A stretch of DNA of 64,000 nt, taken from NCBI GenBank assembly GCA_025351485.1, contig JANXVU010000089.1:6513-70512 (forward strand), read 5' to 3'. Below, one piece after another: positions 37,811 to 60,408 of this stretch. The position numbers and the translations under genes are program-made. A model generated the notes under the pieces. It saw nothing but the letters and a program-made list of their open reading frames with translations, was not told the DNA's origin and did no database searches. Position 1 is the first letter of the stretch. Every line of letters starts with the position of its first letter. Origin of the DNA: Candidatus Eiseniibacteriota bacterium (lineage in GTDB: Bacteria > Eisenbacteria > RBG-16-71-46 > JACRLI01).

Positions 37811-38466
37811 TGAGCGAACACCTTGCCGCGCCCGGCGAGTGCCTGGCGAGCCTCAGCGAGACGTTCGGCTTTCCGGACTTCCACACCATCCTGGACCACC
37901 CGGAAAACAGCGCGCTCAAGACCGCCCGCCCCAATCCCAACATGCTGGTGCCGGGCGACCTGGTGCATATTCCCGACCCGGCGCCCAAGAAGGCCAGCCT
38001 TTCGGAAGACCTGCAGCACGAGATCCGGATCAAGCAGCCGGAGGCCCGCTTCAAGCTCAAGCTGATGGATGACCAGGGAGTGGTGTTCGCGGGAAAGAAG
38101 TTCAACCTGAAGATCGGCTCCACCGAGATCACCGGGAACACCGACGGCGACGGGATGATCAACGAGATCATCCCGCCGGGGTTGACTTCGGGCGAACTGA
38201 CCTTCTTTCCCGAGGGGCGCGATGACGTGCTGGAGGGCTACTTGATCCCGCTCAGCCTGGGGAATCTCAGACCTCCCGATACCACCGACGGCCAGAAGAT
38301 GCGTCTCCAGAATCTGGGCTACCCGATCGGCCCCCTGGGAACGACCGTGGACGAGAGGACCCAGCGCGGCATTCGCATGTTCCAGCGCGACCAGGCCCTG
38401 ACTGCCAACGCCACGCTGGACGCTCCCACCACGGCCAAGCTCAAGCAAGTCCACGACGGCAACTGA
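37811..38466 (+). CDS. LysM domain + peptidoglycan-binding (PG_binding_1-like) domain protein, paralog 1
   Basis: N-terminal LysM-like segment (…GECLASLSETFGF…ILDHPENSALKTARPNPNMLVPGDLVHIPD). C-terminal PG_binding_1-like segment (…RLQNLGYPIGPLGTTVDERTQRGIRMFQRDQALTANATLDAPTTAKL). GGAGGG RBS. Confidence 0.6.
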
Positions 38467-38484
38467 CCCGAGGATTCGAGGCGC

Positions 38485-38961
38485 ATGCCATCCTTCGCGC
38501 GATCCAGCCCAGGAACCAACCACCACAACACCCTGATCCTGCCCCGGGTGAAAGTCTTCTTTCAGCGGTTTCCCGGCACCCTGGGAAGCGACGCGGACCG
38601 GGGTATCGCCAACGTGCCCTTCGTGTTCAAAGTGGACGGCCGCCTGGTGGGCAAGGGAACGACCGCCGCGGACGGGAGCATCACCGTGTTCACCCTGCCG
38701 GCGGTGGGGCTCGCGGTGCTCAATATTTTCGGCACGGACTACAACCTGATCCGGGTGCCGCTCGAGCCGGCCCCGGATATCGCCGGCGCCCAGCGCAGGT
38801 TGCAGCTCCTGGGCTACATGTCCGCCTCGGTCACGAATACGCTGGAGATCAATGCCGGCGAGGCGCTCTTCCAGTTCCAGGCAGACAACCCGCCGCTCGA
38901 CCCGCAGGGCGACCTGCCGGATCCGACCACCACCAAGCTCAAATCGGTTTTCGGGGAATAG
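38485..38961 (+). CDS. Hypothetical protein with a C-terminal PG_binding_1-like domain
   Basis: C-terminus …AQRRLQLLGYMSASVTNTLEINAGEALFQFQADNPPLDPQGDLPDPTTTKL fits the peptidoglycan-binding repeat consensus. The middle region resembles that of the LysM paralogs. Confidence 0.45.
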   Translation: MPSFARSSPGTNHHNTLILPRVKVFFQRFPGTLGSDADRGIANVPFVFKVDGRLVGKGTTAADGSITVFTLPAVGLAVLNIFGTDYNLIRVPLEPAPDIAGAQRRLQLLGYMSASVTNTLEINAGEALFQFQADNPPLDPQGDLPDPTTTKLKSVFGE

Positions 38962-38964
38962 GCC

Positions 38965-40065
38965 ATGACGATCGACATCACTTATCACAAGCGCAAGCGG
39001 CTCAGCCTGGTGCGGTTCTCCCGCGCCACCACGGGCAACCCGGTGATCGACAAGCCCGATCCGGATACCCGCGGGTTCGCCACGCCGGAGTTTGGCGCGG
39101 TGTTGCCGGTGACGGAGAACAAGACCGTGTTCGTGCGGCTGAATCGCGACAACGTGGACCCGGGCGCCGACCTGTTCGTGAAGTCTTCGGACGAGACCAT
39201 CTTCACCGTGGCGGGCCTCACCGGGGGCAAACTTCCCACCGGCGCGACGCAGGACATCCAGGTGGCGGCCAAGGGGGGCGGCACGCCCAAGAAGGCCTCG
39301 CTGGAGGTGCGGTTCGGGGCCCTCGACGGACCGATCATTTCGAAACTCGCGGTGTTCGTGTTCATCAAGCGCACCCTGCGGATCACCCCGCACAACCTGA
39401 GCATCAAGTCGGCCTCCGCGGCCGCGATCCCCAGCGCCGTGGACATCAATTCGGTGATCGGCCTGGTGCGGGCCATCTGGGCGCAGTGCGGCCTGGAGCT
39501 CACCGTTTCGGCCACCGTGACGGATGCGCATACTTTCGCGGTTGCCGGCCGGGTGGGCCGGGGCATTGAGCGGAACAAGGTCCTGAGCGCCCGATTCATC
39601 CCCAACACCATCAACGCCTATTTTGCGCACCAGCTGGAAGGATCCACCCCCGGAACGCTGGGCCTTGGATTCAGCCGAAAATTCATCACCGACAACGGGT
39701 TGCCCAACCCGGGCATCCTCCTTGGGGACGGGAACGTGGCGGGAACCGACCGGAGCACCGACAACATGTGGCTGGCCAACGACCTGGCCCACGAGATCGG
39801 ACACTTCCTGAGGCTCGACCACACCGAGAGGAAGGAGCCGCCCGACAATCGCACCGACCTGTGGTCCAGGCGCCGGCTCATGCACAATTTCAACACCCAG
39901 GGCAGTTCCGGCGACTTCCACGACCAGGTTGGATACGGGGACCGCGCGCCCGGCGACGTGCGGCGCGGCTGCTTCGTGAGCATGAAGGACCTGTCGCAAC
40001 TCACGACCGACGGCGAGGTCGCCGTGGTGCGCAGCACCATCGAGTCCGCGGCCGGGCCCTACTGA
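38965..40065 (+). CDS. Metzincin-like zinc metallopeptidase (HEIGHFLRLDH motif): candidate secreted effector/toxin
   Basis: HExxH…H zinc-binding motif at residue about 290 (HEIGHFLRLDH) with a downstream Met (…RRRLMHNF…). No signal peptide. Sits between the ClpV-like and PAAR/tssB genes. Confidence 0.55.
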   Translation: MTIDITYHKRKRLSLVRFSRATTGNPVIDKPDPDTRGFATPEFGAVLPVTENKTVFVRLNRDNVDPGADLFVKSSDETIFTVAGLTGGKLPTGATQDIQVAAKGGGTPKKASLEVRFGALDGPIISKLAVFVFIKRTLRITPHNLSIKSASAAAIPSAVDINSVIGLVRAIWAQCGLELTVSATVTDAHTFAVAGRVGRGIERNKVLSARFIPNTINAYFAHQLEGSTPGTLGLGFSRKFITDNGLPNPGILLGDGNVAGTDRSTDNMWLANDLAHEIGHFLRLDHTERKEPPDNRTDLWSRRRLMHNFNTQGSSGDFHDQVGYGDRAPGDVRRGCFVSMKDLSQLTTDGEVAVVRSTIESAAGPY

Positions 40066-40087
40066 GCCCGAGGGAGAGGGGATCGAA

Positions 40088-40855
40088 ATGTCCACGCTGG
40101 TCGAACTGGTCCGAGCCAAGGACTACACCGCCTGCCTCGCCGTGCGCGAGGAGGGAGCGGCTGCCGTGCCCGCGCTGCTCGGGTTTGCCAACGACCGCGA
40201 CCCCGAAGTGCGCGAGCTTGCGCTTCACTGCCTGGACGAGATCGGGGGACCGGAGGCCGAACGCGCTTTCTGCGTGGGGCTCCTGGATCGAGACGCCCAG
40301 GTGCGCTCGGCGGCCATGAAGGGCGCCGGCCACCACTGCACCACGGCTTCGGTGGAGGCCCTGAATCACGCCTACGAGCAGAGCCCGGAGCCGGTGGTGC
40401 GCGAAAACGTGATGCTCATCCTGGGCGCGCTGCCGGGCATGGAAGCCGCGAAGCTGCGGGGCCGCTGGGAGCGCGAGAAGCTGCCGCTGGCCCACGACGG
40501 CGGGCGCGCCGCGATGGCCCGGCTCGGGGATCCGAAGGCCCAGGAAGAGTTTTCGGCGCGGCTCCTGGCTTCGGCCGGGACCGAGCGCGTCCGGCTCTTC
40601 GAATACGCGGGCTTCATCCGCCAGCCGTTCTTGCTGAAAACGCTCCTGCCGATCCTGGACGATGGTTCGGATGGGATCCGGATCGGCGCCGATGGAGTCA
40701 CGGAATGTCCCTACGCCCTGAAGTTCCGCGACATGGCCGTCAACCTGGCCGCCGCCATCAGCGGTCAGCGGTTCAGTTTCGAGATCCGGCCCAACATCAA
40801 CTACACCGACTCCCAGGTGTCCGAAGTCCGGCAGTACCTCGCCGGGCTGCGATGA
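40088..40855 (+). CDS. HEAT-repeat (PBS-lyase-type) protein, cytoplasmic paralog
   Basis: Repeated …DPEVRELALHCL… / …DAQVRSAAMKG… HEAT-like units. Shares a C-terminal block (…IRIGADG…) with the next gene. Confidence 0.55.
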   Translation: MSTLVELVRAKDYTACLAVREEGAAAVPALLGFANDRDPEVRELALHCLDEIGGPEAERAFCVGLLDRDAQVRSAAMKGAGHHCTTASVEALNHAYEQSPEPVVRENVMLILGALPGMEAAKLRGRWEREKLPLAHDGGRAAMARLGDPKAQEEFSARLLASAGTERVRLFEYAGFIRQPFLLKTLLPILDDGSDGIRIGADGVTECPYALKFRDMAVNLAAAISGQRFSFEIRPNINYTDSQVSEVRQYLAGLR

Positions 40856-41742
40856 GCCCGCGGGGCCGGCTCGCGCTGCTGGCGGCCATCGCCCTCGGGC
40901 TGGCCGCCTGCGGCGCATCTCCGCGCGGGGCCTCCGCCCCGAATTCCTCGCCCGCCCGCGTCTCCTCCGACAGCCTGCTCCAGTCGATCGAGGCCAAGGT
41001 CCGCGCGCACGACTACTCCGCGCAGAACGACGCGCGGGGACTCGGCGACGGGGCCTTTCCGCTGCTGGCGCGGCTCGCCACGGACCGCGATCCCGACGCC
41101 CGATCGCTGGCGCTGCTGTGCCTCGAGAGCGCTGGCGGTAGCCGCGGTGGCCGGGTGCTGGGTGCGGCGCTGAACGATTCTTCCGCCGACGTTCGCATGG
41201 TCGCCTCCCAGGCGCTGGGCCGGCGCCCATTCCCGGACGCCCTGCCGTACCTGCTATCCGCCGTACGAACGTCGGCCGATCCCGCGATCCGACGCAACTG
41301 CGCGCTGGCGGCGGGAATGATTCCCGGGGCCAGCGCCTCGAAGCTGCGCGAGAGCAGCCGCGCCGAGAAGGATCCCGATGTGCAAATGGCCCTGGTCCAG
41401 GCGCGCGCGCGCCTTGGCGACGGGGAAGCGCGCCGGGAGTTCCAGGCCGGGCTCACGTCCGCCCAGGGCCAGGTCCGCGTTTTATGGCTGGAACGCTGCA
41501 GGTACGTCGGAGAGCCCTGGGTTCTGTCCCCGCTGGCGCCATGGCTGGACGATACGCACCCCGCGGTGCGCATCGGGGCCGACGGCCTTCCGGGCCCGCA
41601 GTACCTTCGCGTGTGCGACGTGGTGATCAACCTGGCGGCTGAATTAGGGAAGCCCAGGTGGAGTTTCAAGACCGGGCCGGCGAAGAACTATTCGGAGGAA
41701 GAACGTAAGGAAGCCCGGCGGGTCCTGGGCTCCATTCGTTGA
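40852..41742 (+). CDS. HEAT-repeat lipoprotein (paralog of the preceding gene)
   Basis: Signal peptide with lipobox (LALLAAIALGLAACG). HEAT-like repeats (…DPDARSLALLCL…, …SADVRMVASQAL…, …DPAIRRNCALAAG…). ATGA overlap with the upstream gene. Confidence 0.55.
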   Translation: MSPRGRLALLAAIALGLAACGASPRGASAPNSSPARVSSDSLLQSIEAKVRAHDYSAQNDARGLGDGAFPLLARLATDRDPDARSLALLCLESAGGSRGGRVLGAALNDSSADVRMVASQALGRRPFPDALPYLLSAVRTSADPAIRRNCALAAGMIPGASASKLRESSRAEKDPDVQMALVQARARLGDGEARREFQAGLTSAQGQVRVLWLERCRYVGEPWVLSPLAPWLDDTHPAVRIGADGLPGPQYLRVCDVVINLAAELGKPRWSFKTGPAKNYSEEERKEARRVLGSIR

Positions 41743-41843: not shown

Positions 41844-42320
41844 CTACTTCAAAGAAATCGTGAACGCCTTGACGATCTCGTCGAACTGCTCCTCCAGCCG
41901 CGCGAAGGCCGATTCCGGGGCGCTGGCGGTGATGATGAACATCACCGGGTCCTTGTAGACGTACCACTGCGCCTGGCGCACGACCACGTCCTTGGGGTTC
42001 TTCCAGGCGTACTGGACGTAGTTTGCGGAGCGCCCCGCGAGGCTGCGGCGCTCCTTCTTGATCTCCTTGTAGTCGGGCAGCTGGCCCTGCAGATCGAGCA
42101 TCAGTCCCTGCGCGAAGCCTTCCACATCCTTGAGCCCGGGAATATTGTCCTGGGTCACGGCCAGCGAGGGCTGCATGTCCTGGATGGTCTCCGGGAGCGC
42201 CGCCAGGTAGACGGAGCGGTCGGTCCAGCCTTCGGGCAGGGCCATCTTGAAACATGCGCCCCTGAGCTCGGGAATCACGGGCTTGGTGGGCGGGTGCGCG
42301 GGCGCCTTGGCATCGGCCAT
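41844..42320 (-). CDS. DUF1795/DcrB-like protein: candidate Eag-type T6SS effector chaperone
   Basis: About 158 aa. Pattern …VYLAALPE…LAVTQDNIP… …YVQYAWKNP… …FIITASAPESAF… resembles the DUF1795 fold. Located immediately downstream of a PAAR protein that carries hydrophobic segments. Confidence 0.5.
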   Translation of the reverse strand: MADAKAPAHPPTKPVIPELRGACFKMALPEGWTDRSVYLAALPETIQDMQPSLAVTQDNIPGLKDVEGFAQGLMLDLQGQLPDYKEIKKERRSLAGRSANYVQYAWKNPKDVVVRQAQWYVYKDPVMFIITASAPESAFARLEEQFDEIVKAFTISLK

Positions 42321-42330
42321 GGAATCTCCG

Positions 42331-43017
42331 TTAGGACTCGACGGTCCAGGAATCCTTGTCGAGGTCGGTCAGTGTGAGTTCGCAGTTGCCGGCGGGCAGG
42401 CCGAATTCCACCACCATGCCGTCGTTCCGCGAGTGGCCCTTGCGGATCTTGCCGTCGGGCAGTTTCAAGTCGTAGGCCACGGCCACGGCGGGGTCTCCGC
42501 TTGCCAGGGTCAGCTTGGCCTTGAAGAAGTGGCGCTGCATGGGGCAGGGGGGTGGCGGTCCGAGCCCGCCGCCGGCAGCCGCCCCGGCTGTTCCGGCCGC
42601 ACACACCGGGGCCGCGCCCGCCAGGGCGCCGCTCACCGCGCTCGAAGGGATCGCGGCGAGATCCAGGAGCCCCAGCAGAATGGCGACGAGCGCCATGAGC
42701 ATGTCCAGGATGGAAACCCCGATGTCCCCGATCAGGACGGCCGGAAATCCCATCACGATGGTCCCGCCGTGCCCGTGCAGGCTGGTCATGCGGGCGGCCG
42801 GCATGCCGCCGAAGAATACTCCCATGGATCCCATCATGATGGGCGCGGGCGGGCCCGTGGCGCACGCGCACATGCCGCCCACCACGGCCGCAGGCTGGCC
42901 CCCGATCATGACCGTCGGGCACCCCGGCGGCATGACGACGCCGCCCACGTGGGGCACCAGCACGGTGAACATCGGGCACACGTGGGGATCGCCAACTCGA
43001 GCGGCGGGGAATCCCAT
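42331..43017 (-). CDS. PAAR-domain protein with hydrophobic (TM-like) region and small C-terminal domain: candidate T6SS spike-tip/effector
   Basis: PAAR-like repeats (…ARVGDPHVCPM… GCPTVMIGGQPAAVVGGMCAC… GGMPAARMTSLHGHGG… VLIGD). Then a hydrophobic stretch (…SILDMLMALVAILLGLLDLAAIP…) and an about 70 aa C-terminal domain. Confidence 0.65.
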   Translation of the reverse strand: MGFPAARVGDPHVCPMFTVLVPHVGGVVMPPGCPTVMIGGQPAAVVGGMCACATGPPAPIMMGSMGVFFGGMPAARMTSLHGHGGTIVMGFPAVLIGDIGVSILDMLMALVAILLGLLDLAAIPSSAVSGALAGAAPVCAAGTAGAAAGGGLGPPPPCPMQRHFFKAKLTLASGDPAVAVAYDLKLPDGKIRKGHSRNDGMVVEFGLPAGNCELTLTDLDKDSWTVES

Positions 43018-43304
43018 GGGGCGCTTCCTCCGGGTGAGTGCGGGGTCAGGATCGGAAAATTACTTCGCCTAGACTGCACCAAATCGGGCCGGACTGCAAC
43101 GGCGCGTTCGGCCGATTCCGGGGGGCCGGGGCCGGGCAACAGGCGGATCAAAAATAAATCGTCAACCCACCCCCTATATAGAATGATCCCGCGATTTGTC
43201 GCTTGGCAAAGACGGGCCGCTGCCTTACGTTCACCCCCTGTAAAATTGTCCTATATCCAGCCTCGCGGCTGGTGCGTTCGAGCCCGCAACCACGGAGGAG
43301 TATC

Positions 43305-43754
43305 GTGCCGAAGCAGAAATTCATCGGCGCTCAGCACGAGCGAGAAGCGGATCTCACCATGGGGGTGGAGATCCTCGACACGAACAAGACCCTTTTCGTC
43401 GCGGCCATGAATGAGCAGGCCGGAGACAACCCCGAGCCGATCCAGTGCCGGACCATGGGCGAGGTGTTCGACACCTTCAAGCCCAAGGTCGAGATCACCG
43501 TGGAAGGCGAGGACGGAGCCAACTCGGACGCCGAGATCAAGTTCAACCGTGTGGGCGACTTCCTGCCGGAATCCGTCATCGAGCAGTCCCCGGAACTTCG
43601 CGCGCAGCACACCGAGCTCCTGCTGCTCAAGGACCTCATGAACCAGCTGCGCAACAACAAGAGCCTGCGCAAGGCGGTGGACTCTCCCGACCGGGAAGTT
43701 CTCATCAAGGGTATCCAGGCGGCGCGCGCGGCCATCGGCGTGAAGGAGAGCTAG
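43305..43754 (+). CDS. tssB: T6SS contractile sheath small subunit TssB (VipA-like)
   Basis: About 150 aa, GGAGGAG RBS + GTG. Sits immediately upstream of the large sheath subunit. Sequence features are typical of TssB (…KQKFIGAQ…EREADLTMGVEILD…). Confidence 0.75.
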   Translation: MPKQKFIGAQHEREADLTMGVEILDTNKTLFVAAMNEQAGDNPEPIQCRTMGEVFDTFKPKVEITVEGEDGANSDAEIKFNRVGDFLPESVIEQSPELRAQHTELLLLKDLMNQLRNNKSLRKAVDSPDREVLIKGIQAARAAIGVKES

Positions 43755-43757
43755 TCC

Positions 43758-45179
43758 ATGGCAAACGAACAGGAACGCGCGCAAGAGCAGGCCGGAGCGG
43801 CCTACGCGGAACCGGCCAAGCCGGAAGACTTCACCTCGCAGCTCGCGGAGCTCAACGCTCCCAAGGCGGCGGGCAAGGCCGACGCCGCCATCGCGTGGCT
43901 GGGCAAGGCCATGCCGAGCGCTTCGGTGGAGGGCGCCAAGCTTCCGCCCATCGATCTGCTGGACCCGACCAAGAAGAAGCAGTACGAGGACCTGGTCAGG
44001 AACAAGAACTTTTCCGAGACCAAGGACCTGCTCGCCAAGCGGCTGAACGTCTGGAACGGCGCGCTCACGTCCTCCGAGGACCTTGAGACCCTCATCGAGA
44101 ACACCCAGCAGCGGCTGGAGAAGCTCGAGGAGCTGCTGAACAAGAACCTCAAGAAGGCGTTCGAGGTGATCCGCCCGCTGGAGACCAACTACCGCGCCGT
44201 GGACGGGTTCTTCATGAACGCCGCCGTGGAGGCGGGCGACAAGGTCGAGGTGAGCTTCCTGAACGCCTCCGCCGAGCAACTCCTGAACCCCGACGACCGC
44301 TCCATCTTCGAGGAAGGCCTTGCCGGCGCCATCCAGACGCGTTTCCGCGACTGGACGCTGAAGGAGACCTACTCGAACCTGTGCGTGCCGGGCTGGGTCG
44401 GCACGGTCCAGAACATCGACCGGCTGGGAATCCTGGGATCGCAGAACAAGGTCCAGGTGTTCTCGGACGCCGAGAACTACGAGAGCTTCAAGCAGCTCCA
44501 GGACAACCTGGACCAGCGGGCGTTCGAAGGCCTGCGTGGCGCCGGCCTGGAAAAGCAGTACGTCTCCCTGTTCGGCAACTGGCTGCTCGGGCGCAAGAAG
44601 TACGACTGGGAAGAAGACGACCTGTGGCTGCCGCCGTCGGCGCTGATGACCGGCGTGGTCTACAAGACCGACGAGACCAAGGGCATCCAGGAGGCCGCGG
44701 CCGGTTACCGCAAGGGCAAGATCCAGGGCTCGACCGGCGTGCGTTTCCGCGTCGATCGTCCCACCGGCGGCAAGATGCTGTTCCAGTACGGAGTCAGCCC
44801 GGTGGTGGACTGGGACGGCTACCCGATCGCCATGGGCGACGCCAACCTCTCGAGCAAGGAAGGCGTGGACGCTTACCCGCGCATCCGGACCGAGGACTGG
44901 CTGCTCAAGAACGTGTGCCACTACCTGAACAAGCAGGCCTACCAGAACATCACCGACACGTTCCGTTCGGCGGTGAAGGCCGACCTGCACGACTTCCTTT
45001 CCAAGTGCACCGGCCCGGACAGCGAAGTGAAGAGCTTCGACATCCAGGTGCAGGCCACCCCGGAAATGGAAAAGCGGCACGAAGTGGACGTGGTGCTGAC
45101 GGTGAAGTTCCAGAACTCGGTGCGTTCGTTCAACGTGAAGGTCAAGGAGGCCGACGCCCAGGTCCAGCAGGGCGCTTAG
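43758..45179 (+). CDS. tssC: T6SS contractile sheath large subunit TssC (VipB-like)
   Basis: 473 aa with the typical TssC length and conserved C-terminal sheath-domain blocks (…GYPIAMGDANLS…, …DVVLTVKFQNSV…). The tssB-tssC pairing is T6SS-specific. Confidence 0.8.
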   Translation: MANEQERAQEQAGAAYAEPAKPEDFTSQLAELNAPKAAGKADAAIAWLGKAMPSASVEGAKLPPIDLLDPTKKKQYEDLVRNKNFSETKDLLAKRLNVWNGALTSSEDLETLIENTQQRLEKLEELLNKNLKKAFEVIRPLETNYRAVDGFFMNAAVEAGDKVEVSFLNASAEQLLNPDDRSIFEEGLAGAIQTRFRDWTLKETYSNLCVPGWVGTVQNIDRLGILGSQNKVQVFSDAENYESFKQLQDNLDQRAFEGLRGAGLEKQYVSLFGNWLLGRKKYDWEEDDLWLPPSALMTGVVYKTDETKGIQEAAAGYRKGKIQGSTGVRFRVDRPTGGKMLFQYGVSPVVDWDGYPIAMGDANLSSKEGVDAYPRIRTEDWLLKNVCHYLNKQAYQNITDTFRSAVKADLHDFLSKCTGPDSEVKSFDIQVQATPEMEKRHEVDVVLTVKFQNSVRSFNVKVKEADAQVQQGA

Positions 45180-45256
45180 CCGGATTTCCATCGAACGTCC
45201 TCGGGTCCGCGGGTTGCCGCGGGCCTTCAAGGCAACCGTAACTCCAGGGAGCAATC

Positions 45257-45655
45257 ATGGCGCAGGAACCCAAGCTCAAGGTGGATGGAACCGCGGTTCC
45301 CAACCTGCTCTCGGTCTCCTACGGCCTCCGGGCCGGCGTGGACCGTGACGGGCGTCCCACCCGCATGCTCATCTTCGACGGAATCACCATTCGCCGAATC
45401 GGCGATGCCAAGACGACCCTCGCCAACTGGGCGAAGGACCCCAAGGAAAAGAACCGCAAGAGCGGGGAGATCGAGTTCTTCGGGGACGCCGGCAAGGCCA
45501 TCAAGAAACTGACCTGGAAGAACGGGTTCGTGAAGCACTACGACCTCCGTTACAATCCCGAGGCTGACCATGTGGAAGAGACTGTCGTGATCCAGGCCGA
45601 AGAGATCAACTCCGGCGGGATGAAGATCGAATGCCACTGGGCCGACAAGCAATAG
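45257..45655 (+). CDS. hcp: Hcp-like inner tube protein (paralog 1)
   Basis: 132 aa, located between tssC and vgrG. Sequence is β-rich, similar in size to Hcp family members. Assignment rests mainly on size and synteny. Confidence 0.55.
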   Translation: MAQEPKLKVDGTAVPNLLSVSYGLRAGVDRDGRPTRMLIFDGITIRRIGDAKTTLANWAKDPKEKNRKSGEIEFFGDAGKAIKKLTWKNGFVKHYDLRYNPEADHVEETVVIQAEEINSGGMKIECHWADKQ

Positions 45656-45669
45656 CGGAGGAATAGAAC

Positions 45670-46089
45670 ATGCCGATTCGTCAAATCAAGGTGGAGATCG
45701 ACGGCAAGCACATTTCCAACGTGCTCGCCGTGGACTACGGCCTGGAAGTGAGCCACGACGCCGACGGCAGCCCGAGCGATGCCCGCCCGCGCCTTGCCCG
45801 CATCTGCGTCACCCGCAAGACCGATGATTCGACGCAGCTGGGGGACTGGGCCTGCAAGCCCTTCCGCGGCCACTTCAAGTCCGGCAAGATCAGCTTCTTC
45901 GCGCCGGACGAAGAGACCAAGGTGCAGTCCACCATGTCATGGACCGATGGGTTCGTGACCCTGTACCGCGAATGGGTGCCGGACGTGCAGACGCACCGCG
46001 GGGATCCGATGGTGGAGTACATCGAGATCTCGGCCCAGAAGATCAAGATCAACGATACGGAAGTGGACGCGGACACCTGGACCACCTAG
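45670..46089 (+). CDS. hcp: Hcp-like inner tube protein (paralog 2, divergent)
   Basis: 139 aa. Shares the N-terminal pattern (…I.V.IDG…VS..YGL…) with paralog 1. GGAGGA RBS. Confidence 0.5.
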   Translation: MPIRQIKVEIDGKHISNVLAVDYGLEVSHDADGSPSDARPRLARICVTRKTDDSTQLGDWACKPFRGHFKSGKISFFAPDEETKVQSTMSWTDGFVTLYREWVPDVQTHRGDPMVEYIEISAQKIKINDTEVDADTWTT

Positions 46090-46189
46090 CCGAGGTGGCC
46101 CACGGAGGCTGATCGCGGAGTCGTCCGATGGGGCGTGCGCTTGATCCGGCGCACGCCCCGTCCGATTTTTTGAGGCCGGGAGAAAAATC

Positions 46190-51787: not shown

Positions 51788-51901
51788 CCGGACGCGCGGG
51801 GCACGAGTCCTGCACAACCGCCGGACGGTGTGGTAGAGTCCTGCTGGAATTGATCTTTCCCCGCCCGGCGGGGACCTAACCCAACGGAGAAATTGAGGCC
51901 C

Positions 51902-53335: not shown

Positions 53336-53343
53336 GACCACCT

Positions 53344-54288
53344 ATGCCCACGCTAGTCGAAAACATCGACAACCTGTTTGCGGAGATCGGCGCGCTCGAA
53401 AAGGGCGGCGCCTTTTCCCCGGATTCGTTCAACCAGAACCTGAAGGGCATCCTTTCGGCGTTCGAGCTGCTCCGCAACCAGCAGGAGCTGGGCTCGATGG
53501 CCGACGACGCCCTGTACACGCGCATCCGCGAGGTGGAGCCCACCGAGTCGCAGCTGCGCTTCCTGACCTCCCACATCCTGGGGATGTACCTGGAAGCGTG
53601 GGCCCACGGACCTTCGGGCTACCGCCGCTCCTACCAGGACCTGCTGCGCTTCCGGCCCGACGACGCGCGAGTGGACGGCGACTTCATCGAGATCGTGCTC
53701 ATGCCGCGCCTGCTGGTGCTGCGCGACCTGGGCGGCCAGGCCGACCTGGGCTACCACCTGTTGATGCACCTGGCCGACTATCTGCAAACGTTCGGCGCTC
53801 CCTCCGGCCTGCCCGCCAGGCCCACGCGCGCCGACCTGGAGGCGATGGGCCCGTCCAGGCTGCTGCTGGGTTTCGCGCGGCGCCGGCTGGCGTTCCCGGG
53901 CAAGCGCCTGGTGGACATGCCGGACGCCTGGGAATACGGGCTGGCCCGCGAAAAGTACTTCGAGTCGCTGCGGGTCCGGGGCAAGAAGCTGCAGCTGGAC
54001 CTGGAAGCCTACCTGCTCCGGCTGGACCTGCTGAGCAAAGTGCCCTGGTGGAAGCGCCTGCTGGATGCCATCGGGCGCTTCTTCCGCGCGATCGGCACGT
54101 GGCTGGGAGCCAGGCTGGAAAAGCTGCCGGCCGGCGGAGTGTTCTGGTCGGCGTTCTGGGTGGTTTTTTCGCTCGCGGTGATGGTGGGCGTGACCCTGCT
54201 GTGGCTCTCCTTCTATGAACATCGCCTGCGGGACTTCCGCGGCAAGGGCCTGAACGCGCAGACGCGCGACATGGAGGTGGTCAAGTGA
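53344..54288 (+). CDS. Cytoplasmic protein with single C-terminal TM anchor: candidate TssL/DotU-like membrane-complex component
   Basis: 314 aa. One predicted TM helix near the C-terminus (…GVFWSAFWVVFSLAVMVGVTLLWLSF…) with a short tail. Topology and position after tssK resemble TssL; there is no sequence-level proof. Confidence 0.35.
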   Translation: MPTLVENIDNLFAEIGALEKGGAFSPDSFNQNLKGILSAFELLRNQQELGSMADDALYTRIREVEPTESQLRFLTSHILGMYLEAWAHGPSGYRRSYQDLLRFRPDDARVDGDFIEIVLMPRLLVLRDLGGQADLGYHLLMHLADYLQTFGAPSGLPARPTRADLEAMGPSRLLLGFARRRLAFPGKRLVDMPDAWEYGLAREKYFESLRVRGKKLQLDLEAYLLRLDLLSKVPWWKRLLDAIGRFFRAIGTWLGARLEKLPAGGVFWSAFWVVFSLAVMVGVTLLWLSFYEHRLRDFRGKGLNAQTRDMEVVK

Positions 54289-56528
54289 GCGGCTTGATTG
54301 GAACCTTCATGGCCAACGCGCAGAATGCCGCCGACACCGCCAAGCAGGCGCGCGAAATGGGCAAGAACGCCAGGAAGACCCAGGACGGGCGGCGCATCTA
54401 CAAGATCGCCTGCCTGGGCCACGCCCGCAGCGGCAAGACCACCTACTGGAGCGTGTTCCACGAGGCCAGCCGCGGCCGCATGGACGAATTCAACATCCAG
54501 ACGGGCGACAACACCACCGCGGCCTACCTGGTGCGGCAGCGGGAAGCCATGCAGTCGGGCGCGTTCTACATCCCCGCGCCCGGCGAAAAACCCGCCGACT
54601 ACGAGCCGGGGTATCCGCCCGAATCCGACCTGCTGGTGAATCTGTTGTTCATGGCGCGCGAAGGCGGCGGCCGCGAGATTCCGATCATGGTGCAGGACTA
54701 TCCGGGACGGGCCATCAGCATCGAGGACACCGATGGGCGCGCCCAGGAAGTGGTGGAATTTCTCAAGGGCGCGGACGGGATCCTGTTCTTCGTGGACGCC
54801 TACTCCACCCGCGAAAGCCCGCACAAACTCACCGAGCAGCTGCTGGGATTCAACTCGCTTCTGAAGCACCTCGAGGACCGGCACGGCCGCATCAACAGGC
54901 CGGTGGGCCTGGTGCTGACCAAGGCGGACATGCTGGACGAGTACCGGCCGGCCAACCCGTCGGAGCTCATCTCGGACGCCGACCAGCGCCGCCGTGGCGA
55001 GATCTACAGCAAGTTCCTGGCGCAGCTCCTGAAGGGCAACGTGTTCGCCCAGGACGCCGCGTGGAAGACCCGCGTGGAAAAGACGCTCACGCGACTTCGC
55101 TCGTTCGCCGACGCGCTGCTCAAGAAGACCCAGGCCACCCAGTTCTTCGTGGTCTCGGCGGTCGGCGACAAGCGCCGGAGGCCCATCGAGCCCGCCGCGG
55201 CCGGGGACAGCATCGCCAACACCAGCATGGCCGCCAGCAGCAGCTCCATGGCGTTTGCCGTGGGGCGCCACGAGACCGGCATGGAAGAGCCGCTGCGCTG
55301 GATGATCCACCAGCTCCTGGTCAAGAACCAGGTGCGCAAGGCCGACCGGCTGCGCAACGGCGCCCTGGCGGCCGCGGCCGTCTACTCGCTCGCCCTGACG
55401 CTTCCGTTCCTGCTCTACCTGGGATGCGCGGTGCCGCGCCTGGAGGCAGACCTGCGCAAGGAGCCGCTGCCGGCCCTGCAGATCCTTAAGGACACCCGGG
55501 GGTTCGAGGAGAACCACCTGGTGAAGCTGTGGTCGGTGATGACCCGCCACCACGATTTCCTGCCGTCCGCGCAGGCCATTCGCACCCGGGTGGCCGACCG
55601 GGTGGTGGAAGAGGGCCGCAACGCGCTCCTGACCGTGCTCAGCCACAACAAGGCACGCGGCGTGAACCCGGACCCGGAAGCTTCGGAGTTCTGCTCCCGG
55701 TGGGGGTTCTTCCTGGAGACCTGCACCCAGGAGCTCCGGGATTCCACGGCCGACTACCGCGACTCGCGGGCCAAGATGTACTGCCTGCGAAAGGTCTTCA
55801 TCCAGGCCGGCACCAACTTCAAGCTGGCCAGCACCAACGACCGGCGCGACGCGTTCCTGAACCTGACGCGCCTCGCCGGCACCCAGTTGTGCATGGAGGA
55901 TACGGTCAAGCTGGCGGCCCAGGCCCTGGCCGACGGCATCACCAAGGACGACCGGATCGCCCCGGCCCCGGTGCCCAGCGCTGCGGCCGGCGGCGGCGGT
56001 GGCGGTGGCGGGCCCTCGCTCAAGGACTCCTACAACACCGCGGTGGCCCAGTTCGGGCCGGGCAGCCCGCCGGAGTCGCGCGTCAGCCTGAAGCTGATTT
56101 CGGACCTGGAAGGCCTGCTCGCCTCGCGCTACCCCCACGACGCCGTGTCGGTGGAGGTGGAAAAACGGATCCACGCCTACCTCTCGGCGGTGGAGAAGTT
56201 CAAGAACGGCACGCCGCTCAAGCTCAAGGTCACGCAGCTGTCCAGCCCGGCGCGGCTCAAGCTTCCGGAAGTCAGCGGGGAGAGGGAGTACCTGCCGGAC
56301 GACGAGATCTCGATCCCTCGCTGGAAGCTGAACAGCAAGGTGCGGTTCGTGTTCTACGCCAACCTGAACTCCGCGCCGCTGGTGCTGGACGACCTGGTGG
56401 GCAAGCAGAACCAGCCGCTGCAGGTGAACCTGCCGGCCAAGGCCGGAGGCAACGTGGTGTTCCAGTTCGAGGTCAGCTCGCCGCCGGTGACGGATGAAAC
56501 CGTGCCGCCGCTGTCGAAGATTCCCTAG
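54285..56528 (+). CDS. P-loop GTPase/NTPase domain membrane protein (747 aa): possible non-canonical TssM-like component
   Basis: Walker A (ACLGHARSGKTTYW) at residue about 40, Walker B-like (ILFFVDA) and NKxD-like (LVLTKAD). One predicted TM at about residue 385 (…AAAVYSLALTLPFLLYLGCAV…) followed by about 350 aa. The GTG start overlaps the upstream stop (GTGA). Confidence 0.55.
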   Translation: MSGLIGTFMANAQNAADTAKQAREMGKNARKTQDGRRIYKIACLGHARSGKTTYWSVFHEASRGRMDEFNIQTGDNTTAAYLVRQREAMQSGAFYIPAPGEKPADYEPGYPPESDLLVNLLFMAREGGGREIPIMVQDYPGRAISIEDTDGRAQEVVEFLKGADGILFFVDAYSTRESPHKLTEQLLGFNSLLKHLEDRHGRINRPVGLVLTKADMLDEYRPANPSELISDADQRRRGEIYSKFLAQLLKGNVFAQDAAWKTRVEKTLTRLRSFADALLKKTQATQFFVVSAVGDKRRRPIEPAAAGDSIANTSMAASSSSMAFAVGRHETGMEEPLRWMIHQLLVKNQVRKADRLRNGALAAAAVYSLALTLPFLLYLGCAVPRLEADLRKEPLPALQILKDTRGFEENHLVKLWSVMTRHHDFLPSAQAIRTRVADRVVEEGRNALLTVLSHNKARGVNPDPEASEFCSRWGFFLETCTQELRDSTADYRDSRAKMYCLRKVFIQAGTNFKLASTNDRRDAFLNLTRLAGTQLCMEDTVKLAAQALADGITKDDRIAPAPVPSAAAGGGGGGGGPSLKDSYNTAVAQFGPGSPPESRVSLKLISDLEGLLASRYPHDAVSVEVEKRIHAYLSAVEKFKNGTPLKLKVTQLSSPARLKLPEVSGEREYLPDDEISIPRWKLNSKVRFVFYANLNSAPLVLDDLVGKQNQPLQVNLPAKAGGNVVFQFEVSSPPVTDETVPPLSKIP

Positions 56529-56581
56529 CGGGACTGCGCGACCGGGTGGGAAGGCCGTCTCCGGACCTTCATGAAAGTAGA

Positions 56582-56618
56582 AGAGGAGCCTTCCACCAGG
56601 AAGGCTCCTCTCTTTTTG
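56582..56618 (+). terminator. Rho-independent terminator (13 bp stem AGAGGAGCCTTCC / GGAAGGCTCCTCT, loop ACCA, T-run)
   Basis: Perfect hairpin followed by CTTTTT. It sits 54 nt after the stop of the P-loop protein gene and closes the tssB…cluster transcription unit. Confidence 0.7.
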
Positions 56619-56652
56619 CATCCCGGCGAATACGCCGGGCCGATCCTTGAAA

Positions 56653-57151
56653 CTACCAGCGCGCCGACTTGGTCACTTCGATGTTCAGGTCCGAGCCTTC
56701 GCCCGGCGTGCTGCTGTCGTGCCAGATCAGGAAGCCCAGGAGCGGCGGAAGCAGCAGCTTCTTGATGATGCTCGCGCTCTGGCTCTTGGCGATCCCCGCG
56801 GCCGGGTCGGCCAGGTGGGCCGGCACCACCACGTGCTTGCCCTTGTACATGAACGTGAACTGGGTGACGTCGAACTTGGCTCCGTCCCCCGTCTTTTCGC
56901 CCATCTTCAGCGTGATGAAGCCCGCCACTCCGGCGGCCAGCACCGGGGGGCCCTTGGGGTCGGCCTGGAAGGCCTCCGGCAGGGTGACCGAGATCGTGTC
57001 GCCATTGGAGTTCGAGCCCGAAATTCCGTACCCCAGGCGCACCTTGAAGGAATCGCCTTCGCGCAGCGCGGCGGCGCCGGCAACCACCGACAGGACCGAC
57101 GATGCGGCCAGGGAAACTGCTACCACCAAGCTCAGGGTTTTTCTCATCCAT
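56653..57151 (-). CDS. Secreted hypothetical protein (about 166 aa)
   Basis: Signal peptide (MRKTLSLVVAVSLAASSVLSVVAGAAA) with no lipobox Cys. No recognisable domain. Confidence 0.45.
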
Positions 57152-57211: not shown

Positions 57212-58501
57212 CTATTTCCTGGTCGTGGCGCCCTTGCGGCCGGGAGCCAGGCGATTCTTCCCGGGGGACTTCACGCCGCCCCGGGAGTGGGCGCCGTTCC
57301 TGCCGCCGTTCTTCGTTTCCGCCAGCTTCGCCGGTTTGCCGTGGCCGTGCTCCCGCCAGCTGGTGGGGTAGCCCTGGTCGTCGTACTTGAGGGCCGCGGC
57401 CGTCATGTGCAGCGGCTGGAACGTGTCCAGCATCACCGCCAGTTCCTCGGTGGACTCCTTGCCCAGGGATGCTTCCACGGTGCCCGGGTGCGGACCGTGG
57501 GGGATGCCCTGCGGGTGCACCGTGAAGGACGCCACGTCGATGCCGCGCCGGCTCATGAAGTTGCCGTTCACGTAATAGATGATCTCGTCGCTGTCGATGT
57601 TGCTGTGGTTGTAGGGCACCGGGATGGACAGCGGGTGGTAGTCGTACTTGCGCGGGCAGAACGAGCAAACCACGAAGTTGTGCCCTTCGAAGTTCTGGTG
57701 CACCGGGGGCGGCTGGTGGATCCGACCGGTGATCGGCTCGAAATCCTCGATGTTGAAGATCCACGGGTACAGATAGCCGTCCCAGCCCACCACGTCGAGA
57801 GGGTGGAAGTCGAAGTGGTAGGACGTGAGCTCGTCGCGGGCTTTCACCCGCACCTCGTATTCGCCCTTTTCCACGTGGGTCTCGAGCTTCTCGGGGCGGC
57901 GGAAGTCGCGCTCGCAGAACGGCGAGTGCTCCATCTGCTGGCCATAGGGGTTGCGGTAGCGCCGGGGCGTCTCGATCTGGCTGACCGATTCGATCACCAG
58001 CCAGCGCTGCTCGCCCTTGTCGGCCACCACCTTGTAGGTCGTGCCGCGCGGAAGGATCACGTAGTCGCCTTCGCGGTAGGGCAGCGTGCCGAATACCGTC
58101 TCGAACCGCCCGGTTCCCTGGTGGATGAAGTAGAGCTCGTCACCCATGCCGTTGCGGTAGAAGTAGTCCATGGGCCGGGCCGGGCGGCAGATGCCCATGT
58201 TCACATCGGTGTTCCACAGCAGCACCTCCCGCGCCTCGATGGGGTCGCCCATGGCCTTCACCGGCCTGGTGAGCAGGTGGTGGTGCCGGAGCGGCTCGCG
58301 CGGGGCGAGCTGGACGGTCATGTCGCGCACGTCGCCGATCCGCTGGACCATGGTGGGCGGGTTGTGGTGATAGAGCAGGGAACTCATGCCGGAGAAGCCC
58401 TTGCTTCCCATGAGTTGCTCGCTGAACAGCTTGCCGTCCGGCCGGCGGAACTGGGTGTGCCGCTTGTGCGGGATCAGGCCGAGTGAATGGTACATGGGCA
58501 T
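57212..58501 (-). CDS. hmgA: Homogentisate 1,2-dioxygenase (with a basic C-terminal tail)
   Basis: Conserved HGD cupin motifs (…NGMGDELYFIHQGTG…, …PHGPHPG…, …FESVSQIETPRRYRNPYGQ…). Confidence 0.85.
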   Translation of the reverse strand: MPMYHSLGLIPHKRHTQFRRPDGKLFSEQLMGSKGFSGMSSLLYHHNPPTMVQRIGDVRDMTVQLAPREPLRHHHLLTRPVKAMGDPIEAREVLLWNTDVNMGICRPARPMDYFYRNGMGDELYFIHQGTGRFETVFGTLPYREGDYVILPRGTTYKVVADKGEQRWLVIESVSQIETPRRYRNPYGQQMEHSPFCERDFRRPEKLETHVEKGEYEVRVKARDELTSYHFDFHPLDVVGWDGYLYPWIFNIEDFEPITGRIHQPPPVHQNFEGHNFVVCSFCPRKYDYHPLSIPVPYNHSNIDSDEIIYYVNGNFMSRRGIDVASFTVHPQGIPHGPHPGTVEASLGKESTEELAVMLDTFQPLHMTAAALKYDDQGYPTSWREHGHGKPAKLAETKNGGRNGAHSRGGVKSPGKNRLAPGRKGATTRK

Positions 58502-58576
58502 GGAACGCACTCCGACTTTCTTTGGGGCCGCTGCCGCGGGCCCGCTCCGGGAACGAATGGCGCGACGGCCGCGCCG

Positions 58577-59671
58577 CTAAAGATTTCCGCGCAGGGCCTG
58601 CTCGCGCTCGATCGCTTCGAACAGCGCCTTGAAGTTGCCCTTGCCGAAACCACGGCTGCCCTTGCGTTCGATCACTTCGAAGAAGAGCGTGGGACGGTCC
58701 TCCACCGGCTTGGTGAACAGCTGCAGCAGGTAGCCTTCCTCGTCTCGGTCCAGCAGGATGCCCAGTTTTTCCAGGTCCTTGAGGTCTTCGTCGATCTTGC
58801 CCGCGCGCAGCGGCAGGTCGTCGTAGTACTCCTTGGGCACGCGCAGGAATTCCACGCCCGAATCCTTGAGCCCCGAGACCGTCTGCACGACGTCGTTGGT
58901 GAGCATGGCGATGTGCTGGGCGCCCGGGCCGTTGTAGAATTCGAGATACTCGTCGATCTGCGACTTGCGCTTGCCCTCGGCAGGCTCGTTGATCGGGAAC
59001 TTGATCGAGCCGGAGCCGTCCGACATGACCTTGGACATCAGGGCCGAGTACTCGGTGGAGATGTCCTTGTCCTCGAAGCTCTGGAACTGCGAAAAGCCCA
59101 TCACGTCGCGGTAGAAATCCACCCAGTGGTTCATCTTGCCCAGCTCCACGTTGCCCACGATGTGGTCCACGCGCAGCAGGCCGTGCCCGCCGTTGCCCAC
59201 GGAGCGCGCCTCGAAGCCGGGGGCAAACGCGCCCTTGTAGTTCCGGCGCTCCACGAAGGTGTGGATGGTATCGCCGTAGGTGTGGATGGCGGAGGTCTTG
59301 TAGACGCCGTGGTCGTCCTTCACCTCGCGCGGCTCGGAGGCGGGCCTGGCGCCGCGCTTGACCGTCTCCTTGAAGGCGGATTCGGCGTCGTCCACCCACA
59401 GGGCGATGTCGCGCACCCCGTCGCCGTGGCGGGCGACGTGGTCGGCGATCGGGCCCTCCGAGCGGATCGGGCTGGTGAGGACGAAGCGGATCTTGCCCTG
59501 CTCCATCAGGTAGCAGGCGCGGTCCCGGACGCCGGTTTCGGGGCCCAGGTAGCCGGTCAGCTTGAAGCCGAAGGCATTGCGGTAAAAGTGGGAGGCCTGC
59601 TTGGCGTTGCCCACCCAGAATTCGAGGTGATCGATGCCCTTCAACTGCAAGAAATCGCCGTGGTTCGACAT
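58577..59671 (-). CDS. hppD: 4-hydroxyphenylpyruvate dioxygenase
   Basis: Two VOC/glyoxalase-like modules with the HPPD iron-ligand regions (…IDHLEFWV…, …[18 protein letters not shown]…, …[10 protein letters not shown]…, C-terminal …[14 protein letters not shown]…). Confidence 0.9.
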
Positions 59672-59751
59672 GGGTCCTCCGGGAGAAATATGGCTGGATT
59701 CCCTGCGAGATTAGGGGCGAAAGACTTGGAAATCAAGGCCCCTCGGAGGCT

Positions 59752-60408
59752 TCAGCTGCCGTGGACGTCCCGCAGCTTGTTCCGGGTCACGGGGCCGGCC
59801 ACCCCGTCCACCTTGAGGCCGTGGTCGCACTGGAATTCCTCGATGGCCGAGTGGAGCCTGCGTTCGTCCACCTTGTCCCCGGGGCCCGCCTTTTCCGCCA
59901 GGCCCGCGTCGTAGCCCAGATTATTGAGCCGGGCCACCATGCCGGACGGGGTGTCCGGGGGATCCAGGTGCCCGACCCGGATCGGAAGCTCGATCTGCAG
60001 GGCGGGAAAGACAATCGAGCCGACCTCGGCTTCCACCGGGATCACCAGTTCCACCTGGCCCTTGCCGTCGGTGGTGACCTCGCGCGGCTCGCCGCCCACG
60101 GCAATCTTGCCCTTGGCGCTCGCGATGGGCTTCAGGTTCCAGTCCTGAAAGACCAGCCGCAGGTGGAGCTCTACCCGGTGGACCTTGAACTTGTGCTGCT
60201 GGCCGGTCTTGAGCGAGACGACCTTCTGGCGCTTCGGATCGGGAATAAACACCACGTCCCCGGGCGCCAGCACGTTGGGATTCTGCCGAAGGGAGCGCAG
60301 GTTCGAGTTCTGGGGATGGTCCCAGATGGGGTTGATGCCGTCGAACCCGTGGCTCTTGGCGATGCGGGAGAGGTGCTCGCCCTGCTGGACGGTGTGGCTG
60401 GCCGACAT
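59752..60408 (-). CDS. LysM domain + PG_binding_1-like domain protein, paralog 2 (homolog of 37811-38466)
   Basis: N-terminal LysM (…HTVQQGEHLSRIAKSHGF…IWDHPQNSNLRSLRQNPNVLAPGDVVFIPD) and C-terminal peptidoglycan-binding repeat (…RLNNLGYDAGL…FQCDHGLKVDGVAGPVTRNKL). Same architecture as the protein at 37.8 kb. Confidence 0.6.
   Translation of the reverse strand: MSASHTVQQGEHLSRIAKSHGFDGINPIWDHPQNSNLRSLRQNPNVLAPGDVVFIPDPKRQKVVSLKTGQQHKFKVHRVELHLRLVFQDWNLKPIASAKGKIAVGGEPREVTTDGKGQVELVIPVEAEVGSIVFPALQIELPIRVGHLDPPDTPSGMVARLNNLGYDAGLAEKAGPGDKVDERRLHSAIEEFQCDHGLKVDGVAGPVTRNKLRDVHGS

Follow-up and report, generated by a model that had tools for sequence, protein, structure and literature searches.

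A LysM and PG_binding_1 protein family that probably loads effectors onto the VgrG spike of type VI secretion systems

We analyzed a 64,000-nucleotide stretch of contig JANXVU010000089.1 from a Candidatus Eiseniibacteriota bacterium (hereafter the window), which carries an atypical type VI secretion system (T6SS) cluster and three related genes, here called A, B and C, with similarity to peptidoglycan (PG)-binding proteins. Judging from homology, predicted fold and gene context, A probably belongs to a large family of LysM-type effector-loading or co-effector proteins, by which toxins would be fixed as cargo on the VgrG spike of the T6SS. A would be made in the cytoplasm and dock on VgrG through its N-terminal LysM-like module, and its transthyretin (TTR)-like sandwich, possibly together with its PG_binding_1 bundle, would hold the cargo. 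The proposed cargo in the window is U366, the product of the next-but-one gene after A. B, which lacks LysM, may be an accessory subunit in that complex, and two HEAT-repeat proteins, HEAT1 in the cytoplasm and HEAT2 as a lipoprotein in the periplasm, would be the cognate immunity proteins of the producer. The periplasmic location predicted for HEAT2 implies a toxin that acts in the prey periplasm. With such a toxin, it is plausible that the PG-binding-type domains act on the prey cell wall after firing, where they may hold the complex if A and B ride with the spike.

The window DNA has a GC content of about 68%, and open reading frames (ORFs) were filtered by codon-position GC before Pfam and NCBIfam scans (Table 1). 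The three ORFs that a sequence-only reading of this DNA had singled out are all real, with one corrected boundary: the interval 37811-38466 is 656 nt long and out of frame, and A starts at the ATG at 37810, which is preceded by a Shine-Dalgarno sequence, GGGAGGGA, at 37795-37803. The proposed paralogy was borne out. A and C align end to end (34% identity, E=1e-36), and B is a paralog of A without the LysM module (30% identity over A73-215 / B21-156, E=9e-7). A direct pairwise comparison of C with B was not significant; the family hidden Markov model (HMM) finds B at E=3e-11, and jackhmmer seeded with B converges on the A family.

The predicted domains were recovered to different degrees. PG_binding_1 (PF01471) scored above the curated Pfam gathering cut-off of 23 bits in A (23.7 bits) and C (40 bits), and B gave no Pfam match at all. 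LysM (PF01476) remained below threshold in C (18.4 bits against a cut-off of 20.9, over residues 5-21 only) and went undetected in A. Across the family, PG_binding_1 is found in 91 of 94 aligned members and LysM (E<=0.01) in 59 of the 94. An AlphaFold2 (AF2) model of A, built on the 94-member alignment (pLDDT 92.8, pTM 0.79), contains a LysM-like beta-alpha-alpha-alpha-beta unit (residues 2-54), followed by a beta-sandwich of 7 strands (79-149) and a bundle of three helices (159-216). Since A itself has no Pfam LysM match, its LysM assignment rests on family-level homology; the model and the family matches support a LysM-like domain. Foldseek searches with this model returned domain-level matches only. 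The sandwich matched transthyretin/5-hydroxyisourate hydrolase and CnaB/Big sandwiches, and the bundle superposed on the N-terminal PG_binding_1 domain of SleB (6tci) with a root-mean-square deviation of 1.4 Å over 53 residues. The architecture of LysM, sandwich and PG_binding_1 domain described for these proteins is real.

Nothing in the family points to export by a classical route: about 100 inspected members showed no signal peptide, lipobox or transmembrane (TM) segment, and the LysM strand opens at residue 2-5 in the inspected homologs. A and C likewise have no hydrophobic N-terminus, lipobox or TM window. The single marginal hydrophobic window of B (residues 64-84) lies inside the region that aligns to the beta-sandwich of A.

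The family is large. When 1.84 billion cluster representatives (50% identity) were scanned exhaustively with the HMM, 33,972 matched at E<=1e-3 and 4,540 at E<=1e-30; among the matches listed, most are proteins of 205-220 residues covered over the whole profile. A single-sequence search had returned only 12 proteins, and the rare family that it suggested was a word-index artefact: a profile search found at least 407 and the exhaustive scan far more. Top matches of the scan include proteins of 800-1400 residues with 8-17 tandem PG_binding_1-like repeats. According to source labels and locus titles, members occur in Acidobacteriota (Pyrinomonadaceae, Bryobacteraceae), Planctomycetota (Phycisphaerae), Thermodesulfobacteriota, Myxococcota (Polyangiaceae, Nannocystis, Plesiocystis, Minicystis) and some Proteobacteria. 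Several genomes carry multiple copies, often as orphans, and one Polyangiaceae metagenome-assembled genome (MAG) has several separate loci.

We sampled the gene context of the family by searching species-representative genomes with a degenerate DNA pattern for the invariant motif G-x3-P-x5-G-x3-RLQNLG[YF], which yielded at least 80 uncentred blocks of at most 8 kb; this sample represents the RLQNLG-bearing part of the family only, without C-type members. VgrG and PAAR labels were given by non-iterated phmmer (E<1e-4) and Pfam, the 'PAAR' label from jackhmmer having drifted onto small VgrG/gp5-like ORFs. A full A-type gene was found in 69 of the 80 blocks listed (80 such genes altogether), and four blocks are plain chance matches. 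VgrG or PAAR was present in 31 of the 69 A-bearing blocks (45%), and for 25 of the 80 A-type genes (31%) a VgrG/PAAR-like ORF on the same strand ends within 500 nt upstream, typically 0-36 nt away. Pfam scans of 37 immediate upstream neighbors identified a full VgrG in ten and PAAR in three. TssF, TssG or ClpV lies just before that VgrG in five blocks, the U366 module is present in ten, and three loci are canonical T6SS clusters with TssF/G/ClpV in which the A-type gene follows vgrG (L026, L045, L063). These linkage frequencies are lower bounds, because the blocks are uncentred and their ends are cut at 8 kb or less. Spike genes account for only a fraction of one percent of a genome, which makes their enrichment near A-type genes very large.

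The surroundings of A and B are themselves conserved. Close relatives retain the gene order of the window (L003, 83% identity; L004, 67%). In a distant relative on a 3.37-Mb Pyrinomonadaceae contig (L001, 32% identity), genes for TssE, a 321-residue protein, TssF, TssG, ClpV and VgrG lie upstream of the module, and VgrG is immediately followed by A-like, B-like, a 407-residue U366 homolog, HEAT, HEAT and PAAR. This module is collinear in Pyrinomonadaceae and elsewhere, and in distant relatives the PAAR gene closes it on the same strand. The A-B adjacency is conserved, and B was found only in loci that carry the full module. The association of A and B with the T6SS that the sequence-only reading had proposed thus holds across phyla, with A/B paralogs linked to T6SS genes in relatives and PG_binding_1 matches found, but the link is to the spike (vgrG/PAAR) and its cargo and not to the membrane complex.

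The family also occurs in natural gene fusions. In a Polyangiaceae MAG, one ORF of 1031 residues (L019:91-3186, minus strand) joins VgrG to a complete A domain (822-1026) with no stop between them. In Plesiocystis pacifica SIR-1, a complete A domain is fused to about 650 further residues (L070:3166-5859, minus strand). In L051 and L090, the LysM-like module alone (HMM positions 1-84) is followed by about 500 residues, in proteins 573-643 residues long that end in PHECGHILGD / PHEAGHVLND (HExxH), and the L090 gene stands directly after vgrG. [quoted passage not shown]

Downstream neighbors are large and heterogeneous, and most of the 48 that we scanned gave no Pfam match. Those that did included pentapeptide/decapeptide repeats, a protein-arginine deiminase, kinases, Metallophos, M19 dipeptidase, AbiEii, OmpA and DcrB. 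The size and diversity of these genes, together with their mostly missing annotation, make the family a practical guide to new effectors and immunity proteins of the T6SS in phyla that have been little studied. One organism of 68% GC has an A-like gene, a 1070-residue OTU-domain protein, an opposite-strand 276-residue VgrG/gp5-like protein and a second A-like gene (L009:2440-7908 and L010), a candidate deubiquitinase-type T6SS cargo cassette. Elsewhere, proteins of 777-791 residues adjoin A-type genes (L078:3078-5411, plus strand; L060:2805-5180, minus strand) and consist of B-type sequence (sandwich and PG_binding_1-like) or of repeated PG_binding_1-like segments with OmpA-like regions.

LysM/PG_binding_1 effector-loading proteins of vgrG loci are an already published class. 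A screen of 130,825 vgrG loci listed LysM and PG_binding_1 among six domain families that occur stand-alone or fused to the VgrG C-terminus or to toxin N-termini (Wang et al., 2023, Commun Biol 6:1195, PMC10673891). In the same study, the stand-alone LysM protein Kalk_10460 of Ketobacter alkanivorans was required for the downstream toxin to co-precipitate with VgrG, deletion of LysM from the LysM-NlpC/P60 effector BRPE67_05220 abolished VgrG binding, and T6SS LysM domains were phylogenetically distinct from those of phages and extracellular contractile injection systems (eCIS) (PMC10673891). TsxE of M. xanthus is a LysM-amidohydrolase effector encoded after vgrG2 (Troselj et al., 2018, PMC5801462).

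The A family shares several traits with the Kalk_10460 class: a small LysM protein encoded right after vgrG and ahead of a toxin-immunity pair, a candidate pair where the A family is concerned, and fusions to VgrG or toxins. Kalk_10460 is not toxic itself and bridges VgrG and the effector in co-immunoprecipitation, and the screen that described it flagged PG_binding_1 as a second such domain family. The A family differs by its fixed architecture of LysM, TTR-like sandwich and PG_binding_1, by its pairing with a metzincin where the described cases have Lyz-like, NlpD or NlpC/P60 toxins, and by its LysM-less paralog B. It is also found mostly in Acidobacteriota, Myxococcota and Planctomycetota, whereas PG_binding_1 was limited to gamma-proteobacteria in that screen. 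LysM-fused effectors such as BRPE67_05220 and TsxE likewise place an N-terminal LysM on T6SS cargo after vgrG, as in the L051, L090 and L070 fusions; in the window, by contrast, the LysM module and the enzyme are separate polypeptides from separate genes. A further parallel concerns the middle domain. TTR domains are credited with a role in cargo binding in the literature, with a mention in PMC10673891. The C-terminal TTR/DUF2345 'internal adaptor' extensions of VgrG resemble A in that its middle domain is TTR/prealbumin-like, in that A is fused to the VgrG C-terminus in L019, and in the proposed function, cargo recognition at the spike tip; in A, this domain is encoded in trans, with LysM on one side and PG_binding_1 on the other.

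The cargo candidate U366 carries the zinc-binding motif HEIGHFLRLDH at residues 276-286. All 14 full-length homologs from the loci retain HExxH, an H or D as third ligand and, further downstream, RRRLM; the homolog in L087 has the canonical metzincin motif HEIGHYLGLYH, and H276, E277 and H280 are invariant in a 75-sequence alignment. When compared with PDB, the U366 family profile matched metzincins exclusively, led by ADAMTS-5 (4.5e-4) and trimerelysin II (9.6e-4) and followed by ADAMs, serralysins, ulilysin and fragilysin. Pfam Reprolysin_5/_4 models match 17 of the 75 members and others match Reprolysin_2/3, M10 and M43; U366 of the window itself falls below the Pfam thresholds. Its AF2 model (pLDDT 94.7, pTM 0.92) shows an Ig/PapD-like sandwich and an alpha/beta domain, with the motif on helix 267-281. 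From the motif, the invariant Met in 'RRRLM' and the modeled alpha/beta fold, we predict that U366 is a metzincin-like zinc metallopeptidase. It resembles the adamalysin/reprolysin metzincins (M12B) in its HExxHxxxxxH site on an active-site helix, in the downstream conserved Met and in the profile matches to ADAMTS-5 and trimerelysin. It departs from them by an N-terminal Ig/PapD-like domain, by the lack of a signal peptide and by its T6SS cargo position ahead of HEAT-repeat immunity candidates.

The spacing of A, B, U366, HEAT1 and HEAT2 indicates one tight operon (37810-41742), with gaps of 18 nt between A and B, 3 nt between B and U366 and 22 nt between U366 and HEAT1. The HEAT1 stop and HEAT2 start overlap as ATGA (40852-40855), which indicates translational coupling. 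Scans for promoters and terminators near the operon and near C gave results no better than those from shuffled sequences. The longest-ORF call for HEAT2, from 40705, adds 49 spurious residues and masks a lipoprotein signal; from the true start, ATG 40852, the N-terminal signal reads MSPRGRLALLAAIALGLAAC. All HEAT2-type homologs have a hydrophobic signal ending in Cys (LVSC, AIGC, LTFC, FSTC), and HEAT1-type proteins have neither a signal nor a TM segment. The position of HEAT1 after U366 is conserved in relatives, and Imm-HEAT is a catalogued immunity class (Zhang et al., 2012, PMC3482391). After A and B, the genes follow the order of a metzincin-like protein, a cytoplasmic HEAT protein and a lipoprotein HEAT protein, which by sequence would be a toxin and its immunity proteins.

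C is best seen as an orphan member of the family without an adjoining cargo gene. The sequence-only reading had the three genes bracketing the T6SS-like cluster, which is a geometric coincidence only: clpV and tssB enclose A and B within the cluster, and C lies about 3.2 kb past the last cluster gene, behind two tyrosine-catabolism genes, hmgA-like and hppD. C has no conserved linkage to the cluster, and no T6SS or cargo-like gene adjoins it in the window. The C-type subgroup to which it belongs occurs in the same range of contexts as A-type genes. One island (L092) holds DUF4280, VgrG, a C-type gene, genes for 945- and 494-residue proteins, a second LysM/PGB gene and more; another locus (L094) has a C-type cassette with two large proteins without assigned function and no VgrG; and in a third (L091) a solitary C-type gene stands amid housekeeping genes. 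C-type proteins (P0026, P0054, P0057, P0059, P0088, P0104 and others) have three conserved cysteines in the bundle, EEFQCD...VDGxCGP...HGC, one of which is the C-terminal residue. This pattern hints at disulfide bonds or bound metal and at action outside the cytoplasm; C of the window retains only the first of the three.

Several points weigh against a loading function. About half of the sampled A-type genes have no spike gene in their block of at most 8 kb, and some family genes are solitary, such as C in the window and the gene in L091. Within the window, the VgrG gene lies 7.7 kb from A and is followed by PDZ-tssE. The likeness of the A family to Kalk_10460 is one of description and gene context, and T6SS LysM clades are diverse (Wang et al., 2023, PMC10673891). 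The role given to B as an accessory subunit is a guess, and loading gives no reason for the PG_binding_1 domain. Foldseek left the catalytic domain of U366 unplaced; it is uninformative on this half of the protein, because its matches were dominated by the Ig-like sandwich.

One alternative, which we consider unlikely, denies A, B and C a loading function and places their action in the prey periplasm only, as secreted PG-binding subunits or non-catalytic effectors that tether the toxin or the spike to prey peptidoglycan and reach the spike in some other way. Each protein has two PG-binding-type domains, a lipoprotein as immunity protein implies a toxin at work in the periplasm, the C-type's conserved cysteines would fit an oxidising compartment, and LysM and PGB1 have been catalogued among the adhesion modules that toxin polypeptides carry (Zhang et al., 2012, PMC3482391). 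On the other hand, the place right behind vgrG and the effector fusions with LysM only (L051, L090) match the published docking role of LysM. Tethering on the prey side is compatible with loading onto VgrG and does not exclude it.

PF01471 has the fold of the matrix-metalloproteinase (MMP) pro-domain. We also considered whether the PG_binding_1-like bundle of A and B acts as such a pro-domain in trans, capping the metzincin site and keeping U366 latent until delivery, and we regard this as very unlikely. It would draw together the shared fold, the metzincin nature predicted for the partner and an enrichment of HExxH in immediate downstream partners (7/55 versus 8/251, Fisher p=0.008), several of which have canonical metzincin motifs, as well as the LysM-HExxH fusions of L051 and L090 and an HG[C] tail conserved at the C-terminus of many family members. 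Yet most partners lack HExxH, 91 of 94 members keep PG_binding_1 whatever the partner, and the two HEAT proteins already fit the role of inhibitor. The proteins of the window also have no terminal Cys, ending in HDGN (A), FGE (B) and HGS (C). An exclusive pairing of the family with metallopeptidases was rejected, since the HExxH enrichment is significant and still concerns a minority of partners (7/55). Slightly less probable again is the fuller version, in which the bundle is no wall-binding module, or at least not solely one, A and B cap the zinc site of a metzincin toxin and the HG-Cys tail serves as a cysteine switch in many members, so that a latent toxin is carried on the spike and activated after delivery. 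If true, the pro-domain reading would introduce a 'zymogen in trans' logic for T6SS effectors and link this bacterial domain to the origin of the MMP pro-peptide.

The sequence-only reading had instead proposed that A, B and C bind the peptidoglycan of the producer and anchor the T6SS membrane complex in trans, in place of TagL or an OmpA-like extension of TssL. Both PG_binding_1 and LysM are bona fide folds for PG binding, the presence of A and B in the cluster is conserved, and Pfam scans found no OmpA-like or other PG-binding domain in the candidate membrane proteins of the cluster; this last observation, already made in that reading, agrees with our general Pfam scans of the window proteins, which were not followed by further examination. 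Topology, gene neighborhood, fusions and distribution all speak against such an anchor, and we give it very little credence. The inspected proteins have no signal peptide, lipobox or TM segment and begin their LysM at residue 2-5; the genes go with vgrG/PAAR and variable cargo and not with tssL-like or other membrane genes; the module is fused to the C-terminus of VgrG, which is expelled; and the genes occur in multiple copies, as orphans and as solitary copies amid housekeeping genes. The known T6SS-linked proteins with a PG-binding domain (TagL, the OmpA-like extension of TssL, TagN and TagP) are membrane-inserted or exported and carry OmpA_C-like domains encoded beside tssL/tssM, whereas A, B and C have no export signal, use other PG-binding folds (LysM, PG_binding_1) and neighbor vgrG, PAAR and cargo genes.

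Equally remote is a role of A as a gpX/Afp7-like structural LysM component of the baseplate hub, needed for the assembly of a non-canonical T6SS and not for loading: P2-like phages and eCIS have LysM proteins as core components of their hub (cited in PMC10673891), the cluster is atypical (Bacteroidota-type TssB/C/D Pfam families, a PDZ-TssE, no TssJLM matches) and A is conserved in the cluster of close relatives, but the family is multi-copy, occurs in orphan vgrG islands, solitary and with variable cargo, accompanies canonical T6SS clusters as well (L026, L045, L063), and shows no Phage_tail_X or viral fold match. A, B and C gave no match to Phage_tail_X (PF05489) even at E<=10, and Foldseek found no gpX-like fold in BFVD or PDB, where a small domain is hard to detect within a three-domain query. 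P2 gpX and eCIS LysM baseplate proteins (Maxwell et al., 2013) would share with A the use of a LysM fold for structural contacts between proteins around the spike or hub of a contractile injection machine; gpX is a core protein of about 70 residues with LysM only, whereas the A family is accessory and multi-copy. The earlier remark that the LysM recalls gpX was therefore right in direction, as to a protein-protein module of a contractile spike, and found no support in domain or fold matches.

Loading onto VgrG thus corrects a plausible guess, as these proteins appear to be handlers of spike cargo and not wall anchors. What our analysis adds to the published class is incremental: a fixed three-domain architecture, a large size outside Proteobacteria, a LysM-less paralog, the conserved A-B-metzincin-HEAT-lipoHEAT(-PAAR) module and its presence in an atypical T6SS cluster. 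The loader class described in 2023, mainly from Proteobacteria, would include a very large three-domain family, and the window offers a concrete candidate set of a metzincin-like toxin and a pair of HEAT immunity proteins, one cytoplasmic and one a lipoprotein. None of this would surprise a T6SS specialist; its use lies in effector discovery.

Table 1. Genes of the T6SS-like region of the window and its surroundings, in window coordinates
Feature	Coordinates	Strand	Description
Ser/Thr protein kinase fused to FGE-sulfatase (SUMF1-like) domain	32732-34666	-	just outside the clpV end of the cluster
ClpV-like	34656-37163	-	
Peptidase_C70-like (papain-fold, AvrRpt2-like)	37106-37753	+	Pfam PF12385 E=1.7e-12; directly upstream of A
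A	37810-38466	+	218 residues in three domains (LysM-like; transthyretin-like beta-sandwich; three-helix bundle of PG_binding_1); proposed to dock on VgrG as cargo loader or co-effector
B	38485-38961	+	158 residues: LysM-less A paralog, beta-sandwich and degenerate PG_binding_1-like bundle
U366	38965-40065	+	366 residues: N-terminal Ig/PapD-like sandwich and metzincin-like zinc metallopeptidase domain; proposed toxin cargo
HEAT1	40088-40855	+	255 residues, Pfam HEAT_2 E=2e-13, no TM segment or signal peptide; proposed cytoplasmic immunity or holding protein
HEAT2	40852-41742	+	about 296 residues, HEAT-repeat lipoprotein; proposed periplasmic immunity protein
DcrB/DUF1795-family protein	41844-42320	-	Pfam PF08786 E=2.8e-14; downstream of PAAR gene
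PAAR protein	42331-43017	-	228 residues, Pfam PAAR_motif E=3e-19
TssB	43203-43754	+	
TssC	43758-45179	+	
Two Hcp	45257-45655, 45670-46089	+	
VgrG	46190-48151	+	Pfam Phage_GPD, Phage_base_V; presumed docking partner of A
PDZ-TssE	48171-49031	+	TssE fused to N-terminal PDZ domain
TssF-like	49032-50759	+	
TssG	50723-51787	+	
TssK-like	51893-53335	+	
Tail-anchored 314-residue protein	53344-54288	+	TM segment about 261-293
DO-GTPase2 protein	54285-56528	+	747 residues, one hydrophobic segment
hmgA-like	57212-58510	-	
hppD	58577-59671	-	
C	59752-60408	-	218 residues: orphan A paralog, C-type subgroup, canonical PG_binding_1 motif EEFQCD..VDG..GP
NHL-repeat/Vgb_lyase-like gene	~60598-61650	+	350 residues in source annotations; divergent from C

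The T6SS cluster itself (43203-56528) is atypical. TssC and both Hcp match PF17541/PF17642, models that presumably derive from Bacteroidota-type T6SS, and for TssB the match is to the general VipA model (PF05591). TssF and TssK could barely be detected, and Pfam and NCBIfam scans of the cluster gave no match to TssJ, TssL or TssM. The stop of the gene for the tail-anchored 314-residue protein overlaps the start of the DO-GTPase2 gene, and by sequence these two proteins could form a different membrane complex. Two ORFs were set aside: one at 56525-57151 (minus strand, 'unk208') is probably no gene, its translation being Arg/Gly/Pro-rich junk, and the 5' half of a 629-residue ORF antisense to C (59761-61650, plus strand) is spurious, source annotations calling only the 350-residue gene.

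Two further neighbors of the A operon may be connected with effectors. The PAAR protein has a strongly hydrophobic stretch (about residues 85-131) after its PAAR domain and then a C-terminal domain of about 90 residues. DcrB/DUF1795 is the family of Eag chaperones, and the gene is kept in L003 and L004; its product is possibly an Eag-type chaperone or an immunity protein for the PAAR protein. Together, the two genes resemble another effector set, carried by PAAR and convergent to the A operon. On the other side of the operon, the Peptidase_C70-like gene is conserved only in the closest relatives (L003-L005), and its true start is probably internal (146 residues are called in L003). Its product apparently has Ser in place of the catalytic Cys ('KSWHAAASM'), no obvious catalytic His and no signal peptide, and could be a pseudo-peptidase that serves in immunity or as an accessory protein.

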